Position numbers and translations under genes: made by a program. Source: Rubripirellula sp. (GTDB lineage Bacteria > Planctomycetota > Planctomycetia > Pirellulales > Pirellulaceae). From it: a DNA stretch of 64,000 bases. Positions 44,023 to 61,806 of this stretch are shown here, piece by piece (position 1 is the stretch's first letter; each line of letters begins with the position of its first letter). The stretch spans positions 1,120,001 through 1,184,000 of the forward strand of contig OZ244207.1 of NCBI GenBank assembly GCA_965216875.1, read 5' to 3'. Below the pieces are notes generated by a model, which saw only the letters and a program-made list of their open reading frames with translations, was not told the DNA's origin and made no database searches.

Positions 44023-45204
44023 ATGGGAGCCTGCCTGATGCCCAAACCATTGTTCCTTTGCGTTGCCCTGCTGCTTACGTCCGTTTGCTCGGGCGATGAC
44101 GTTCCTGAATTCAAATGGCGAACGCAGGAGATCGACAAGATCTCCATCGGCTATGGATTGCAAATGGCCGACGTCAACGGTGACGGCAAGACGGACATCG
44201 TGTTGGCTGATAAGAAAACCATCCAGTGGTATGAGAGCCCAACGTGGGAAAAGCATGTAATCGTGTCTGACTTGACCAAGCGCGACAACGTTTGCATCAC
44301 TGCCCGAGATATTGATGGCGACGGTAAATGCGAAATCGCAGTTGGCGGCCAGTGGAACTTTCGAGAAACAATCAAAGACGGCGCGGTTTTCTATCTGATT
44401 CCTCCTGAAGACCGAACGCAGAAGTGGACGCCCGTCGAACTGCATCACGAACCGAGCGTTCATCGCATGCATTGGGTCAAGTCGCCGACCGATTTCAAAC
44501 TCGTCGTCAAACCACTTCGAGGGCGAGGCAGTGTGGATGGAGACGGGGCTGGCATTCGCGTTCTGGAATACCACGTCCCCGAGAATCAAAAGGGAGATTG
44601 GAAATACGATGTGATCTGTGAGTTCATGCACTTGTCACACAATTTCCACCCGGTGAATTGGGACGACGATCCTGAAGAGGAGTTGATCATCGCCGGCAAA
44701 GAGGGCGTTTGGCATTTCGATCGCGATCAGGGCAAGGGGGATTGGATCGCGACGCAATTGACCGATGAGTTCGCCGGTGAGATTCGCGACGGCAAACTTC
44801 CCAACGGCAAACGTTTCATCGTGACCATCGAGCCGATGCACGGCTTCAAGTCGGCCGTCTATGTCCAGCCTGACAACAAAGGCGACCGCTGGCAGCTCGT
44901 GAAAGTGCTTGACGAGCAATTGAAAGATGGGCACGCGATTGCAGTGGCCGATTATCTCGGTGTCGGCAGCGATCAGATCGTGGTTGGTTGGCGAGCGATG
45001 AACGCGCCCGGCGTTCCCGGCGTCAAGCTCTTCGCACCACTCGATTCGAATGGGGCGAAGTGGCGTCCGACGCAGCTGTCGGCGGAGGAAGTCGCGGTCG
45101 AAGACATCAAAGCCGCGGACTTGAACGGCGACGGAAAAGTGGACATCGTCGCCGCGGCAAGACAGACCAAGAATTTGGTCGTGTTCTTTAACGAGACGGA
45201 GTAG
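44023..45204 (+). CDS. Secreted FG-GAP/VCBS repeat protein
   Basis: Signal peptide; repeated DxNGDGKxDI calcium-loop motifs. Confidence 0.85.
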   Translation: MGACLMPKPLFLCVALLLTSVCSGDDVPEFKWRTQEIDKISIGYGLQMADVNGDGKTDIVLADKKTIQWYESPTWEKHVIVSDLTKRDNVCITARDIDGDGKCEIAVGGQWNFRETIKDGAVFYLIPPEDRTQKWTPVELHHEPSVHRMHWVKSPTDFKLVVKPLRGRGSVDGDGAGIRVLEYHVPENQKGDWKYDVICEFMHLSHNFHPVNWDDDPEEELIIAGKEGVWHFDRDQGKGDWIATQLTDEFAGEIRDGKLPNGKRFIVTIEPMHGFKSAVYVQPDNKGDRWQLVKVLDEQLKDGHAIAVADYLGVGSDQIVVGWRAMNAPGVPGVKLFAPLDSNGAKWRPTQLSAEEVAVEDIKAADLNGDGKVDIVAAARQTKNLVVFFNETE

Positions 45205-45214
45205 GGCGTCGACA

Positions 45215-45240
45215 TTGGGTGCGTGCTCGCACGCACCCAA
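45215..45240. terminator. Perfect hairpin between convergent genes
   Basis: TTGGGTGCGTGC-TC-GCACGCACCCAA. Confidence 0.55.
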
Positions 45241-45255
45241 CGCAATCGTTGCTCG

Positions 45256-46086
45256 CTACTCGATTGGGCGTTCTTCGCCTTTGTTGTTTCGCAAGAAGGG
45301 ATCGCGTTCCTGTTCGCCTTCGGCTGCCTTGAATTCGCGGAGCCAAATGTTTCGGAAACGCACAGGGTTGCCGTGATCCTGGAGCGAGATTGGGCCCGTT
45401 TCGCCATGCTTGCTGTACGCAGGAGGTCGGTTGTAGGGCGTGTCCCCTTTGAGCTCGAAGTGATTCAAGATCAAGACGCCGTTGTGAACCGCAGTGATGT
45501 AGGCGGGTGATTTGAGCGAGCCATCTTCGTTGAATCGCGGTGCAGTCCAAAAGATGTCGTAGGTGTTCCAGTCGCCCGGTTTGCGCATCGCATTGACCGC
45601 TGGTGGCGTTTGCTTGTAGATCGCGCCCGCTTGGCCATCAAAGTAGGTTTGGTTGTCGTACGAATCGAGCACTTGGATTTCGTAACGCCCCATCAAGAAG
45701 ACACCGCTGTTGCCGCGTCCTTGGCCGTTGCCTTTGACGGGCACGGGGGCTGACCATTCAATGTGCAGTTGGCAGTCGCCAAATTGGTCTTTGGTGACGA
45801 CCTGGCCCTTGCCGCTACTGACGATGCCATCTTTGACCGGCCAGTTTTCGCCGTTCTTCCACTTCGACATGTCAGTGCCGTCAAAAAGGATGATGGCATC
45901 CGATGGTGGCGAGGCGTTCGATTCGCCTGGATCGACGACGGCGGGTTCTTTCCATTTGATTCCGTTGAGGTATTCGTCTGCGGTGGCAGTGCTGACGACG
46001 GCTGTAAAGCAGGCAGTCATGATCGCAATCGTAAAGTGGCGGGCCGACATCGATAGGAAACCTTGGCTAAGGGGTGTTGAGGTCAT
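45256..46086 (-). CDS. DUF1080 (3-keto-disaccharide hydrolase-like) secreted protein
   Basis: ILFDG, FGDCQLHIEW, GNSGVF, YEIQVLDS, WNTYDI, ISLQDHGNPVRFRNIW. Confidence 0.9.
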   Translation of the reverse strand: MTSTPLSQGFLSMSARHFTIAIMTACFTAVVSTATADEYLNGIKWKEPAVVDPGESNASPPSDAIILFDGTDMSKWKNGENWPVKDGIVSSGKGQVVTKDQFGDCQLHIEWSAPVPVKGNGQGRGNSGVFLMGRYEIQVLDSYDNQTYFDGQAGAIYKQTPPAVNAMRKPGDWNTYDIFWTAPRFNEDGSLKSPAYITAVHNGVLILNHFELKGDTPYNRPPAYSKHGETGPISLQDHGNPVRFRNIWLREFKAAEGEQERDPFLRNNKGEERPIE

Positions 46087-46208: not shown

Positions 46209-47111
46209 TCACGCCTGGGACGGACCATCGGAGTGCGAGCCGGGGCTTTTTGCAATTGCGATTGCGATTCCACCAATCACGGCCAAATTGGCTGCTAGTA
46301 ATCCAGCGATGACCGATGGCACTTTGGACACGCCGTAGCTGTGGATTTCAGTCGCATACGACGACGCCAAAACATACGAAAGTGCGATCATCCAAAACGC
46401 GACTGCGGCGACGGCACCGCCGCGAACCGATTGCCCAGCGGATGGACGGGATTGTGGCGGCATACTCAAAACCCACAAACCCGAAAGTGCGAGCGTGACG
46501 AGCGCGAACCCTTCACGAGGATCCCACCGCCAAGGTTGTCCCCAGCTGAATTGTGCCCACACGCATCCAAGCAGAACGCCGACTGCATAGAACGCGATCG
46601 CGCCTCGCAGCAAACGCCTTTCCCAGCGGCGGCAAGACAATTCCAACGCCGCCCTTCGCAATGAGCCAAGCAACGCAATCTGTGCCAACAGGTAAGCCAG
46701 CACCATACCAAGCAAGCCGCCAAGCAAAGCAAAAACGTGAAGCATCAACAGAAAACGCATCGGGCCGCTGACCAAACCCTCGATGCCGACGTCGGTCGTA
46801 GCGGGCGCTTCGACATCGACGTTGGACCTGCTGTAGTCGTTGGCGATGTTGGCCCAAGCCGATGTCTGTGATCCAAGCAGCAAACAAAAGAACAACATCG
46901 AGGCGGCGATCGAAACGAGCATCCGGAGTTTCCAAGAACGCACTGCTGGAGATGGCACCGTCGAATGGACGCTAGGGGCAGCGCGGGACAGTCGTCTTGC
47001 GATTTCGGCACAGGCTTGATCGGTTGGCATGGACGACAGCATGACATGAAGTGCATTGGAAACGGAGGCATCAAGTTCATCGCGGTACTTCACAGGATTG
47101 GAGTGATTCAC
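46209..47111 (-). CDS. Putative anti-sigma factor fused to a CcsA/CcmC-like WWD heme-handling domain
   Basis: GTG 1 nt after the sigma stop with a GAGAGG RBS; soluble N-terminus, TM helix and SAWA, then LHV, WAQFSWGQPWRWDPRE and IHSYG. Confidence 0.75.
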   Translation of the reverse strand: MNHSNPVKYRDELDASVSNALHVMLSSMPTDQACAEIARRLSRAAPSVHSTVPSPAVRSWKLRMLVSIAASMLFFCLLLGSQTSAWANIANDYSRSNVDVEAPATTDVGIEGLVSGPMRFLLMLHVFALLGGLLGMVLAYLLAQIALLGSLRRAALELSCRRWERRLLRGAIAFYAVGVLLGCVWAQFSWGQPWRWDPREGFALVTLALSGLWVLSMPPQSRPSAGQSVRGGAVAAVAFWMIALSYVLASSYATEIHSYGVSKVPSVIAGLLAANLAVIGGIAIAIAKSPGSHSDGPSQA

Positions 47112-47112
47112 T

Positions 47113-47649
47113 TTAAGCCTCTCGGTTTTCGGAGAACTCATGCGCGAGTGACTCGCGCAGATTGTTTCGTGCCTTGTAGAGCGCGGTCGAAACGGCGCTC
47201 TCGGAGATCTCGAGATAGGTCGCAATTCTCGCGTTGGACATGCCTTCGATGTGTCGTAACGCAAAGCACCTTGCTTGACGGTCAGGCAAGGCAGCGATCG
47301 CGGCTTGCATGATCGCAATTTGTTCGTCCACTTCGATGGAGCTGGAAAGGGGCGTTTCGACGGGATGTTGGTTTACATCAAGGGGTGACGGCGTCTTGCG
47401 GCGACGCAATTGATCGATCGCCCGAAGTGTCGTCATGTGACTCAGCAATCCAATCTCGGGAAGTTGATCGCTTTTCTGGGAATGCCGGTAAGCTTCGAGC
47501 AGCACTTCTTGGGTGATGTCCTCAGCCTCGGCGGCATCGTGCAGGATTCGGTAGGCCGCTCGGAATAGCTGTTTGCTGTGGTTCGATACGAGCTGCTGCC
47601 ATGTCACGGGTGGGCGCCAAGGAGTCGAGTGTTTCAGTGGGCGGTTCAA
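47113..47649 (-). CDS. ECF-type RNA polymerase sigma factor (start may be GTG 47607)
   Basis: Region 2 AYRILHDAAEAEDITQEV...RAIDQLRRR; region 4 LPDRQARCFALRHIEGMSNARIA...ALYKAR. Confidence 0.9.
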   Translation of the reverse strand: MNRPLKHSTPWRPPVTWQQLVSNHSKQLFRAAYRILHDAAEAEDITQEVLLEAYRHSQKSDQLPEIGLLSHMTTLRAIDQLRRRKTPSPLDVNQHPVETPLSSSIEVDEQIAIMQAAIAALPDRQARCFALRHIEGMSNARIATYLEISESAVSTALYKARNNLRESLAHEFSENREA

Positions 47650-47752
47650 AAGAGAATCGAGCGCCGACGACGAATGTCACCCCAAAACGAGAAAAAAGCG
47701 TGACGCAGCGTCGCGCTTCGATCAAATCGACGCGTGCACCTCGCGTCAGTCT

Positions 47753-47777
47753 GGAACGATCATCACGATCTTGCGTT
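47753..47777 (+). promoter_or_regulatory. Possible ECF-type promoter GGAAC-N16-CGTT upstream of the beta-barrel gene
   Basis: GGAAC at 47753-47757 and CGTT at 47774-47777. Confidence 0.35.
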
Positions 47778-47883
47778 GCCGATGATTGCTCCGGCAGTCG
47801 AGTGGTGTGCAGCGACGATGGTTGTTTTCAGAGCGTCAGAATGGAGTTTGACGTGTCGTTTTGGGGCGGATGGATCGTTAGAT

Positions 47884-49026
47884 ATGGCTGGGTCTCGTTA
47901 CCACTGGTTGTTGTTTGCATGCGGCATCGCGAGCCTGATCGTGCCGGCGTCGAAGTTGCAAGCCGGCGATGCGTCGGGCAACGTATCGATGGCATCGATC
48001 TGCGACGGGTATTCGTTTGGGTCCTGGCAGCTTCCCGCGCAAACCCCGGCCACCGCCCAAACTCTGCCGCAAGCCGCCATCGCCGCTCGCGCTGAACCTG
48101 CCATGGAGCGTCCTGTTTTGACGAAGCGGCTCAACCCGGTCACGCGTCGTTGGCGAGCAAACGCCGGATTCGAGTTTGGTTGGTTGCAGCCTCGCTTTTC
48201 TGAAAACGTTGCCGCCATCGTGACGAGGCCAACGGGGAATCGAGTCCTCGCGTATGACTTTGAACACGAATTGACGCCGCGCGTTTGGGTTGGCATTGAA
48301 AACTGCAATCGGGTCGGGCTCCGAGCCGGCTACTGGTACTTTGAAACCGACGCACCCACTGGCGTGTATCAGGCCACGGCTGGCTACGCCCCCATCTCAC
48401 GCACGATCGTTGGTGCATCGGGAGGACTGAGCCGAATGGCGGTTGCCAACGTCGGTGATGCGATGACGACCAACCATCATCTCGAAGCAAAAACGATCGA
48501 GCTTGAACTGACCAAACGGATCGTTCATCGGCGCGGCGATTGGACAGCAGCGCTGGGGCTACAGTACGCAAAGGTCGATCAGCGATCCCATGCGGTTGCG
48601 ACCGACGGTGTCGGAGCACTCACCGAACTCGTTTGTCAGGACATCCTGATCGACGGTTTCGGGCCAACGCTGGCAGCTGCGTGCAACCACCGCCTGTTTT
48701 GTTGCGATGGTCCGCTTCGCGGATTGGGCATTTACGGCCACGGACGAACGTCACTGTTGTTTGGACGGACGGAACAGGAGATCGTGTTGGTGACAGGGGG
48801 CGGAGCAGGGTTGGCCGAAGACGATCATCAGCAGGATAGTTTCCTGCCAATCATTTCGGTCGGCGGCGGCCTGCGTTGGATGAGTCAACCGCGTGGGTTT
48901 GGATCGATTGAGTTGAAGACCGGTTATCGCGGCGAAAGTTGGTTCAGTGTTGGCGGACCTTCCGATTTCGACAGCAACCTCGGATTCCACGGCGTCACCT
49001 TTTCGATCGCCTGGTGGCGCGCCTAG
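47884..49026 (+). CDS. Putative outer-membrane beta-barrel protein (Lpg1974/BBP7-like)
   Basis: Signal peptide, amphipathic beta-strands (PRVWVG, GLRAGYW, GFGPTL, GFHGVTFSIAW), aromatic C-terminus. Confidence 0.7.
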   Translation: MAGSRYHWLLFACGIASLIVPASKLQAGDASGNVSMASICDGYSFGSWQLPAQTPATAQTLPQAAIAARAEPAMERPVLTKRLNPVTRRWRANAGFEFGWLQPRFSENVAAIVTRPTGNRVLAYDFEHELTPRVWVGIENCNRVGLRAGYWYFETDAPTGVYQATAGYAPISRTIVGASGGLSRMAVANVGDAMTTNHHLEAKTIELELTKRIVHRRGDWTAALGLQYAKVDQRSHAVATDGVGALTELVCQDILIDGFGPTLAAACNHRLFCCDGPLRGLGIYGHGRTSLLFGRTEQEIVLVTGGGAGLAEDDHQQDSFLPIISVGGGLRWMSQPRGFGSIELKTGYRGESWFSVGGPSDFDSNLGFHGVTFSIAWWRA

Positions 49027-60677: not shown

Positions 60678-61223
60678 CTAGTTGCGGGACGGGAAGGTAC
60701 CGATGAGTGCGATGATGTAATTCAATCCGAGGAACGGTTGACGGTTGCTGAACGAAGTGTTGTTGCCAGTGTTGAGAACCGTAACACCGCCTGTCAGCGC
60801 TCGCAGTGACGCGTCGGTAGCCGCCGTGCTGTAGATGTCTTCTGGCGAAAGACCCAACGCGTTGCCCGACGGATCATCTGAGTTGCCGTTATCTGTCACG
60901 TGACAGGGAACTGCCAAGGTCGATGTCGCTGTGTGGGTGTGGGCCGGCAGGTTGTTGACGTTCAGCGTTGTGTCAGCGTTACCTGACCTTTCACCAAGGG
61001 CGACATTTTGAAGACCAGGGCCTTGACCTTCGTGCACGGCCACGCGGCCTCGAAGTTCGGGCAACCCAAAGGTTGTTCGTCCATCGCCGCCGTAGGTTGT
61101 CCCTAGGATCGCAAATAGGGCTTGATTCTCACTGATTGCTAAGAGCTGACCATCACATAGTGCCCAGCCGCGAGGGGCGAAGTTGCCCGCGAATAAAATG
61201 ATTTGACCAATAAACGGTTCCAT
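60678..61223 (-). CDS. Phage tail-collar domain protein (MdpB-like), copy 2
   Basis: FIGQIILFAGNFAPRGWALCDGQLL...LGTTYGGDG..TF.LPELRGR; C-terminal QPFLGLNYIIALIG.FPSR. Confidence 0.9.
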   Translation of the reverse strand: MEPFIGQIILFAGNFAPRGWALCDGQLLAISENQALFAILGTTYGGDGRTTFGLPELRGRVAVHEGQGPGLQNVALGERSGNADTTLNVNNLPAHTHTATSTLAVPCHVTDNGNSDDPSGNALGLSPEDIYSTAATDASLRALTGGVTVLNTGNNTSFSNRQPFLGLNYIIALIGTFPSRN

Positions 61224-61260: not shown

Positions 61261-61806
61261 TTAGCTTCGACTTGGGAAAATGCCAGTCAACGCAATGATG
61301 TAGTTCAATCCCAGGAAGGGCTGCATGTTCGAAAACGAGGTTCCGTTGCCAGTGTTCGCAAGCGTGACGCCGCCGGTGAGTGCACGCAGCGATGCATCGG
61401 TTGCCGCGCTGGAGTAGATGTCTTCGGGTGACAAACCCAGCGCGTTTCCAGACGGGTCGTCCGAATTGCCGTTGTCGGTGACGTGACACGGCACTGCCAA
61501 AGTGGACGTTGCCGTGTGTGTGTGCGACGGCATGTTATTGATATTTAGCGTTGTGCTTGCGTTGCCAGCCTTCTCACCCAAGGCGACCGGTGGCAGGCCA
61601 GGTCCGTTGCCTGGGTGCACCGGCACTCGCCCACGCAATTCAGGCAGCGCGAAGTTGGTACGTCCATTACCGCCGTAGGTTGTGCCGAGAATCGAAAACA
61701 ACGCGCTGTGCGAAGCGATGTCCAGGAGCTGGCCATCGCAAAATGCCCAACCGCGCGGGGCAAAATTGCCCGCAAACAAAATGATCTGTCCAATAAAGGG
61801 CTCCAT
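61261..61806 (-). CDS. Phage tail-collar domain protein (MdpB-like), copy 1
   Basis: Same motifs; 181-aa paralog of the adjacent gene. Confidence 0.9.
   Translation of the reverse strand: MEPFIGQIILFAGNFAPRGWAFCDGQLLDIASHSALFSILGTTYGGNGRTNFALPELRGRVPVHPGNGPGLPPVALGEKAGNASTTLNINNMPSHTHTATSTLAVPCHVTDNGNSDDPSGNALGLSPEDIYSSAATDASLRALTGGVTLANTGNGTSFSNMQPFLGLNYIIALTGIFPSRS

Follow-up and report, generated by a model that had tools for sequence, protein, structure and literature searches.

The question raised by this locus is why a gene for an extracytoplasmic function (ECF) sigma factor should be coupled to a gene for a membrane protein bearing the WWD domain of cytochrome c biogenesis. The pair occupies positions 46209 to 47649 (minus strand) of a 64,000-nucleotide stretch of Rubripirellula sp. 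DNA (assembly GCA_965216875.1, contig OZ244207.1, positions 1,120,001 to 1,184,000), here called the window. An earlier inspection of the letters alone, referred to below as the sequence-only reading, had proposed that the second protein is an anti-sigma factor whose WWD domain was repurposed into a heme or redox sensor. According to the analysis, the pair would work like an ECF/anti-sigma system with a heme-handling domain, and the partner is not a CcsA; that the two proteins form an ECF/anti-sigma pair is very probable. The anti-sigma role of the partner, which would inhibit the ECF until a signal arrives, is well supported computationally. The two genes are as follows.

47113..47649 (minus strand): ECF sigma factor gene, stop codon at 47113-47115; 178 aa if read from TTG 47649 and 164 aa if read from GTG 47607
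46209..47111 (minus strand): gene of a putative membrane anti-sigma factor carrying a WWD domain derived from CcsA; 300 aa, six transmembrane (TM) helices, GTG start at 47111

The partner start codon lies one base past the ECF stop codon, as the sequence-only reading had described, and the motifs which that reading had listed were all present in the translation, i.e. SAWA (residues 84-87), LHV (with H125), WAQFSWGQPWRWDPRE (185-200), LALSGLWVLS and IHSYG (with H257). A 369-aa extension of the partner open reading frame from a TTG codon inside the ECF gene (46209-47318) was rejected, as all relatives start at the ECF stop. Conservation of the ECF among relatives begins at GTG 47607, which may be its true start. 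The ECF matched Sigma70_r2 and Sigma70_r4_2, and also TIGR02937 above the cut-off. The partner matched Cytochrom_C_asm (PF01578) with an E value of 2.6e-13 and 50.5 bits (cut-off 29.9), which answers in the positive the profile check proposed earlier. Its AlphaFold2 model (mean predicted local distance difference test, pLDDT, 85; predicted template modelling score 0.72) begins with a pair of short helices at the N-terminus, followed by TM1, another short helix (84-96), a linker and five more helices. The order of the helices and the charge of the loops suggest that H125, the WWD loop and H257 face the side opposite the N-terminus, as in CcsA.

Word-index protein searches gave just two relatives each, and a full HMMER scan recovered the family. 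The scan yielded 33 proteins at E <=1e-10, mostly of 290-330 aa and covering the whole query, which were well separated from the canonical CcsA matches. The alignment comprised 30 full-length sequences, namely 28 of the HMMER matches, P0004 and the window protein; fragments and one aberrant 412-aa match were excluded, and mean column identity was 34%. The family comprises about 30 clusters at 50% identity with a single architecture, and the reading frame was open in all loci. At least one cluster member has been annotated automatically as CcsA, which is probably wrong. In P0018 the last ~170 residues leave the family pattern after TM4, as from a frameshift or an assembly error. Scanning of species genomes gave 46 loci, of which nine were full-length relatives (all planctomycete records) and 37 short matches, and scanning of metagenomes gave 13 loci with one full-length relative (L079, the ECF of which is cut by the contig end). 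Besides the genome of the window, the module was carried by 1/150 family-level, 0/400 order-level and 1/400 class-level genomes, the class-level search having used a stricter first look; it is thus rare, being found in <1% of the planctomycete genomes sampled.

The residues of the CcsA-type core were compared across the 30 aligned relatives and with 7S9Y, the CcsBA structure of H. hepaticus. We take H761, H897 and H858 of 7S9Y to be P-His1, P-His2 and TM-His, respectively. These labels fit the flanking positions in PMC6299221.

46248..46766 (minus strand): CcsA-type core, TM2-TM6, residues ~116-288; PF01578 in 29/30 relatives
46737..46739 (minus strand): His125, equivalent of P-His1; His in 30/30; pairs with H761 of 7S9Y
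46506..46559 (minus strand): WWD loop, residues 185-202; W185, G191, W194 and W196 each in 30/30
46467..46469 (minus strand): Leu215, position of the lost TM heme-channel His; His in 0/30; pairs with H858 of 7S9Y
46341..46343 (minus strand): His257, equivalent of P-His2; His in 20/30 in the column and 21/30 in the loop; pairs with H897 of 7S9Y

Five residues were thus invariant (H125 and the four of the loop), and the less strict loop positions were E200 (29), P198 (28), R/K199 (26), W190 (24) and D197 (24). A Cys183 beside the pocket was found in 16 of the relatives. The sequence-only reading had pointed out that the TM histidine following the WWD loop in CcsA is absent, and this holds throughout the family. 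The histidine of its IHSYG motif, in turn, is present in the window protein, so that this protein has both flanking histidines, although across the family that residue is not universal. Among canonical relatives, 76/89 carried a His in the TM-His window and 75/89 an H[SAT][YF] motif at P-His2; these are crude window counts on the 89 of 196 candidate segments that passed the filters, and the tree places one of these 89 within the family.

The family profile gave only two significant matches in the PDB, both to CcsA/CcsBA proteins (E 1.7e-14 and 9.3e-13). The best NCBIfam match was TIGR03144, at 52.1 bits well below its equivalog cut-off of 187.6, and TIGR01191 (CcmC) matched just nine of the 30 members, and weakly. 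The top three structural matches were CcsBA (Z 13.4), CcmC (12.7) and CcmF (12.7), compared with 12.2 for unrelated four-helix bundles; Foldseek gave no match at E <=0.001, and its top rows were CcmC and CcsBA. Membership in the WWD superfamily is therefore indicated by PF01578 above the cut-off, the invariant loop residues and the top structural matches, the margins over helical bundles being modest. In a quick tree the family formed one side of a long branch (SH-aLRT support 99, stem length 0.84), and this tree singled out no sister, and so no donor, of the domain among the CcsA lineages. Since the TM-His, the link to CcsB and the equivalog cut-off all fail, the family is CcsA-derived but is not CcsA.

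The genome of the window encodes a separate CcsBA fusion of 1262 aa with ResB and PF01578, 4.3 Mb away from the pair, and this is the sole ResB match of the genome. Separate CcsBA fusions (1217-1325 aa) were present in this and in all five other carriers tested. The earlier proposals that the domain has been uncoupled from cytochrome c maturation, and that no ccsB gene lies nearby, are supported by the CcsA-type profile matches, by the distant CcsBA of the carriers, and by the lack of any conserved neighbour but the ECF. CcmE was not found in the genome of the window, which is 99% complete. A third PF01578 gene of ~300-350 aa was observed in four of the five carriers (G151:C4:2512179, G153:C268:41555, G154:C159:7666 and G155:C924:3924) and was not found in the genome of the window.

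The ECF gene was located directly upstream of the partner in 12/12 full-length loci (the window, L033-L041, L079 and L123), which represent about seven independent lineages with otherwise varying neighbours. The ECF orthologues in the nine full-length loci from species genomes were 41-53% identical to the ECF of the window. No neighbour besides the ECF was conserved across genera in the locus comparison. In the neighbourhood survey that the sequence-only reading had called for, full-length relatives were accordingly ECF-linked throughout, and the unlinked homologues that it had named as counter-evidence were not seen among them.

Binding of the ECF by the N-terminus was investigated by structure prediction, in which the alignment of the ECF was folded with residues 1-62 of the partner alignment and with three controls.

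46974..47111 (minus strand): predicted cytoplasmic sigma-binding domain, residues ~1-46, helices 15-26 and 31-44 in the AlphaFold2 model

The predicted complex obtained a score of 0.87, while the best of the three controls obtained 0.00, in favour of the sigma/N-terminus complex that the earlier reading had suggested modelling. In a benchmark the mark for this score was reached by 116/157 solved pairs and by 2/215 mismatched pairs. The runs had at least 80% of contacts in common, with a partner pLDDT of at least 67, and residues 6-46 of the partner were predicted to contact sigma2 (3-40) and the sigma4 side (93-158). No anti-sigma Pfam family was found among the 30 members. A class I anti-sigma domain comprises four helices in ~100 aa (PMC7406223); the partner head, with two main helices in ~46 residues and no HxxxCxxC, does not belong to this class (ASDI/ZAS). 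In the model, the predicted two-helix wrap resembles CnrY and NepR, which embrace sigma2 and sigma4 in this manner (PMC4598750), more than the four-helix domain. This possible likeness to class II lies in the size and helix number of the short cytoplasmic domain and in its predicted contacts to sigma2 and sigma4, and no sequence match of the partner to the class II factors CnrY and NepR was found. CnrY also differs in having a separate sensor, CnrX, whereas the sensor of the window partner is fused and polytopic. Atlas searches with residues 1-100 gave only leads below 0.9 (one cluster, with zf-HC2 in 39% of its members), and an atlas search with the whole partner gave no usable match.

The origin of the fusion was traced in sister loci. 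When the ECF profile was run against 401 family-level genomes, three matches of at least 237 bits were obtained, all of them WWD-linked and included in the profile, and the next matches reached at most 160 bits. In total, 29 sister loci were examined (L119-L121 and L132-L157), 26 from the ECF profile scan and three from another search; L158 was excluded, and for nine weaker matches no locus was available. Against the 29 sister ECFs, those linked to WWD genes formed a single clade (support 100/99). A profile of family residues 1-96, i.e. the head and TM1, matched the proteins encoded directly downstream of the sister ECFs (+1 proteins) in 22/29 cases above all 2,900 shuffles, while a profile limited to the cytoplasmic part scored no better than shuffles on three sister proteins. 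None of the 29 sister loci contained a WWD match. The C-terminal parts of the 25 sister +1 proteins scanned matched DUF4349 (2), WD40-like repeats (4) or, weakly, DUF5673 (1), and the others were unnamed. Because the N-terminal module is common to most of the sister +1 proteins and none of them has a WWD domain, the simplest reading of the sequences would be a sensor-domain swap on a modular anti-sigma scaffold. The sister planctomycete pairs are thus similar to the window pair in their ECF, which belongs to the nearest clade, and in the homologous N-terminal module with its TM helix; they differ in their C-terminal domains and in the upstream motif. The sisters themselves appear as a wider planctomycete ECF family with a common anti-sigma-like N-terminus and swappable C-terminal domains.

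A candidate promoter was found in front of the ECF gene.

47655..47681 (minus strand): candidate autoregulated ECF promoter; -35 GGTGAC at 47681-47676, 15-nt spacer, -10 TCGATT at 47660-47655

The pattern GGTGAC-N15/16-[TA]CGAT[TA] occurred within 300 nt upstream of the ECF in 10/10 loci, 46-91 nt 5′ of the conserved first ECF codons in each; the pattern was derived from these same ten loci. It recurred at L123, a close relative of L037 outside the derivation set. The motif GGTGAC...TCGAT was absent upstream of 26/26 sister ECFs, 14 of which had a motif of their own, G(G)TCAT...CGAC. Its presence before WWD-linked ECFs and absence before the sisters are consistent with an autoregulated ECF whose specificity has changed. 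In the 8.26 Mb genome, only 30 sites of the motif were counted on the two strands (16.5 million strand positions). A perfect consensus match ~317 nt upstream of hemL (G000 C1:1379448, L124), lying inside another open reading frame, was considered as a target and attributed to chance, since no counterpart with a spacer of 15-16 was found upstream of hemL in the five other carriers, where the best scores were 8-13 compared with 21.

Between the head and the core, two features bear on how the sigma factor might be released.

46872..46928 (minus strand): TM1, residues ~62-80; hydropathy peak at 62, model helix 56-81
46824..46862 (minus strand): A-W-A/G signal-peptidase-like site in an amphipathic helix, residues 84-96

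Of the relatives, 27/30 obeyed a permissive (-3,-1) rule and 28/30 kept W86. The mean hydrophobic moment of helix 84-96 was 0.42, compared with 0.27 for shuffled sequences, and none of 1000 shuffles reached 0.42. M50 proteases are encoded in the genome of the window. In RsiV, an AXA-type site is embedded in an amphipathic helix after the TM helix and before the ligand-binding domain (PMC8844934), an arrangement that RsiV/sigmaV has in common with the window partner. RsiV differs in that its sensor is a soluble lysozyme receptor, while the partner has a five-TM heme-handling core, and no DUF4179 (RsiV) match was obtained among the 30 family members. By analogy, an RsiV-like release by signal peptidase and site-2 protease is plausible; that release occurs by proteolysis is a tentative proposal, held at just under even confidence.

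Taken as a whole, we regard it as an even proposition that the pair is a stand-alone autoregulated ECF/anti-sigma operon, in which a planctomycete scaffold would have acquired an outward-facing CcsA heme pocket as its sensor. In a first step, well supported computationally, the two N-terminal helices would wrap around the ECF in its closed sigma2-sigma4 form and keep it at the membrane. The sequence shows that the five C-terminal helices have kept the WWD loop and P-His1, while the TM-His channel, the N-terminal CcsA helices and the CcsB partner are gone; these losses indicate that the partner serves neither in heme export nor as a synthase of cytochrome c. The pocket would then bind heme from the periplasm or the outer leaflet, as proposed for CcmC, through His125, with His257 as an optional second ligand. 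Occupancy might shift helix 84-96 and expose A-W-A to signal peptidase, after which a site-2 protease would cut TM1, as in RsiV, and the freed ECF would transcribe from GGTGAC-N15/16-TCGAT, including at least its own operon. That the pocket binds heme or a close metalloporphyrin is, from its residues, probable. The CcsBA counterparts of W185 and W194, namely W828 and W837, have been located at the heme vinyl (PMC6299221, PMC10663686); CcmC has a WWD/P-His site without TM histidines (PMC10663686); and in CcsBA it is P-His1, and not P-His2, that is correctable by imidazole (PMC6299221). These three points support heme binding via H125 and the WWD tryptophans. Whether heme is the signal appears evenly balanced, and heme would in that case be sensed directly. 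The sequence-only proposal of a repurposed sensor therefore stands as regards CcsA origin and decoupling, whereas its heme or redox sensing stays a conjecture, P-His2 being dispensable and no heme target or neighbour having been found.

Several observations weigh against this heme-sensing reading. P-His2 was replaced by R, Q, K or N, or was missing, in 9/30 relatives on about five branches, P0004 and P0005 being members that lack it, and CcsBA needs both P-His residues for synthase activity. CcsBA variants of TM-His keep only ~10-15% of their heme (PMC10663686, PMC6299221), which implies that the external site of CcsBA is normally loaded from inside. No regulon beyond the operon emerged, i.e. 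the 30 exact genome matches compared with 19-28 for wrong spacers and were not in excess, a weight-matrix scan of upstream regions gave 28 candidates compared with 21-33 for controls, and with 26 exact matches in the five other carriers, nothing downstream of a match was common to the six genomes apart from the operon. Among the loci compared, no neighbour related to heme, iron or cytochromes was conserved. The A-W-A feature was inherited from the sister scaffold and is thus uninformative about the ligand, and the score of the predicted complex may partly reflect likeness to known complexes, since solved ECF/anti-sigma pairs exist.

Some of these observations would also be expected if the pocket of the same anti-sigma factor had been retuned to a signal other than heme. 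This might be a metal, a protein partner in the periplasm (for example an apocytochrome CXXCH peptide) or some other flat and hydrophobic molecule (for example a different tetrapyrrole or an envelope-active compound). The repeated loss of P-His2, the change of D197 in 6/30 relatives, the long stem branch together with long end branches, the Cys183 beside the pocket and the lack of heme-related targets and neighbours all favour such a change. His125 and the three pocket tryptophans are, however, invariant, and they are the heme-contacting set of CcsBA and CcmC; for a CXXCH peptide in particular, the CcsB beta-cap proposed to bind CXXCH is not part of the window protein. We consider a non-heme signal unlikely. 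Heme might instead be a standing cofactor, five-coordinate on His125 and with its sixth ligand labile or absent. It would then monitor the redox state of the periplasm or a gas there (NO, CO, O2), and the sigma factor would be released by conformational change or proteolysis. An invariant P-His1 with an optional P-His2 would leave an open sixth site in about one third of the members, and six-TM redox-sensing anti-sigma factors exist, namely NrsF/OsrA of ECF16 (PMC7826278), but the WWD heme sites of the three known members are transient and surface-exposed (PMC10663686) and no loading route is evident without TM-His, which makes a standing cofactor distinctly unlikely.

The partner could also still be a heme-handling accessory (a sink, a chaperone or a substrate-specific synthase subunit) and as such the regulated product of the ECF, with the anti-sigma head providing feedback and sensing being secondary. 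The operon is the sole conserved target of the promoter, and the family retains most of the residues on which CcsBA activity depends (W185 in 30, W190 in 24, K/R199 in 26 and E200 in 29 of 30), yet TM-His is lost throughout, P-His2 is dispensable, the N-terminal CcsA helices are replaced, no ccsB, ccmE or conserved CXXCH gene lies near the loci compared, and an intact CcsBA is encoded elsewhere; an accessory role is thus improbable. The rarity and patchiness of the module, with the order- and class-level counts given above, would suit a chance fusion or a decaying ccsA copy that senses nothing. This is already largely refuted by family-wide conservation, as the ~30 clusters have one architecture, an invariant pocket, open frames and a co-inherited ECF clade and promoter, and we hold it to be very improbable indeed.

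The partner was compared with known systems. The nearest sequence family is CcsA/CcsBA of System II (PF01578, TIGR03144; 7S9Y, 7S9Z), with which it has in common the four-TM core and last helix, the WWD loop, P-His1 and usually the HSYG motif of P-His2. In contrast to CcsA/CcsBA, the window family has no TM-His, an optional P-His2 and no CcsB part, its N-terminal helices are replaced by an anti-sigma head and TM1, and the gene lies behind an ECF. CcmC of System I is similar in its WWD/P-His site without TM histidines and in structure, but the partner is CcsA-like in sequence and fused to a predicted sigma-binding domain, in a genome where CcmE was not found. HasR-HasS-HasI, HurI, ChrS and HrrS relay heme to transcription via a membrane sensor, as would be the case here. 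In Has-type ECF cascades a TonB-dependent receptor senses heme and the anti-sigma factor only relays (PMC11442138), whereas here the anti-sigma factor itself would bind heme and no receptor gene lies nearby. ChrS and HrrS are histidine kinases with a six-TM pocket for heme (PMC11442138); the window protein is a putative anti-sigma factor.

The text and supplement of Casas-Pastor 2021 (PMC7826278), as far as available, contained no ECF group with this domain or promoter; Wiegand 2020, known from citing papers to have introduced 30 new planctomycete ECF groups, may list one. Full-text literature searches, which mostly miss subscription papers, found no paper on an ECF-linked CcsA/WWD fusion, and the available parts of the reviews PMC10663686 and PMC11442138 place WWD domains solely in the machinery of cytochrome c biogenesis. 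The proteins might constitute a fourth functional WWD class beside CcmC, CcmF and CcsA, i.e. an anti-sigma factor that itself binds heme on the periplasmic face of the membrane and conveys heme spill-over or the status of cytochrome c maturation to transcription without a TonB-dependent receptor or kinase; we put this forward with slightly less than even confidence. If the signalling use is true, the heme pocket would be a portable sensor, and the partner would offer a WWD protein reduced by nature to a minimum (lacking TM-His and an acceptor, with P-His2 optional), suited to probing the pocket alone and to addressing how heme enters from outside, which has yet to be answered for CcmC. Together, the ECF, the predicted promoter and the cognate inhibitor would form a compact reporter, the ligand of which is directly testable in E. 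coli, and the trio could serve as an orthogonal periplasmic heme sensor. The importance is limited by the rarity of the family and by the finding of no output genes beyond its own operon.

Other genes of the window were also inspected. The gene at 47734-49026 (plus strand), divergent from the ECF, showed a weak match to a Legionella_OMP barrel below the cut-off and was absent beside other loci. Two genes occupy 44023-46086 downstream of the pair, one for an FG-GAP propeller protein and one for a 3-keto-disaccharide hydrolase (DUF1080). Both also adjoin the same-genus locus L033 and not those of other genera; outside the genus, neither the divergent gene nor the DUF1080 gene is a conserved neighbour of the pair. 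At 60681-61223 and 61264-61806 (minus strand), two 181-aa genes lie in tandem; their N-termini are almost identical, and their products look like tail-collar-domain proteins.

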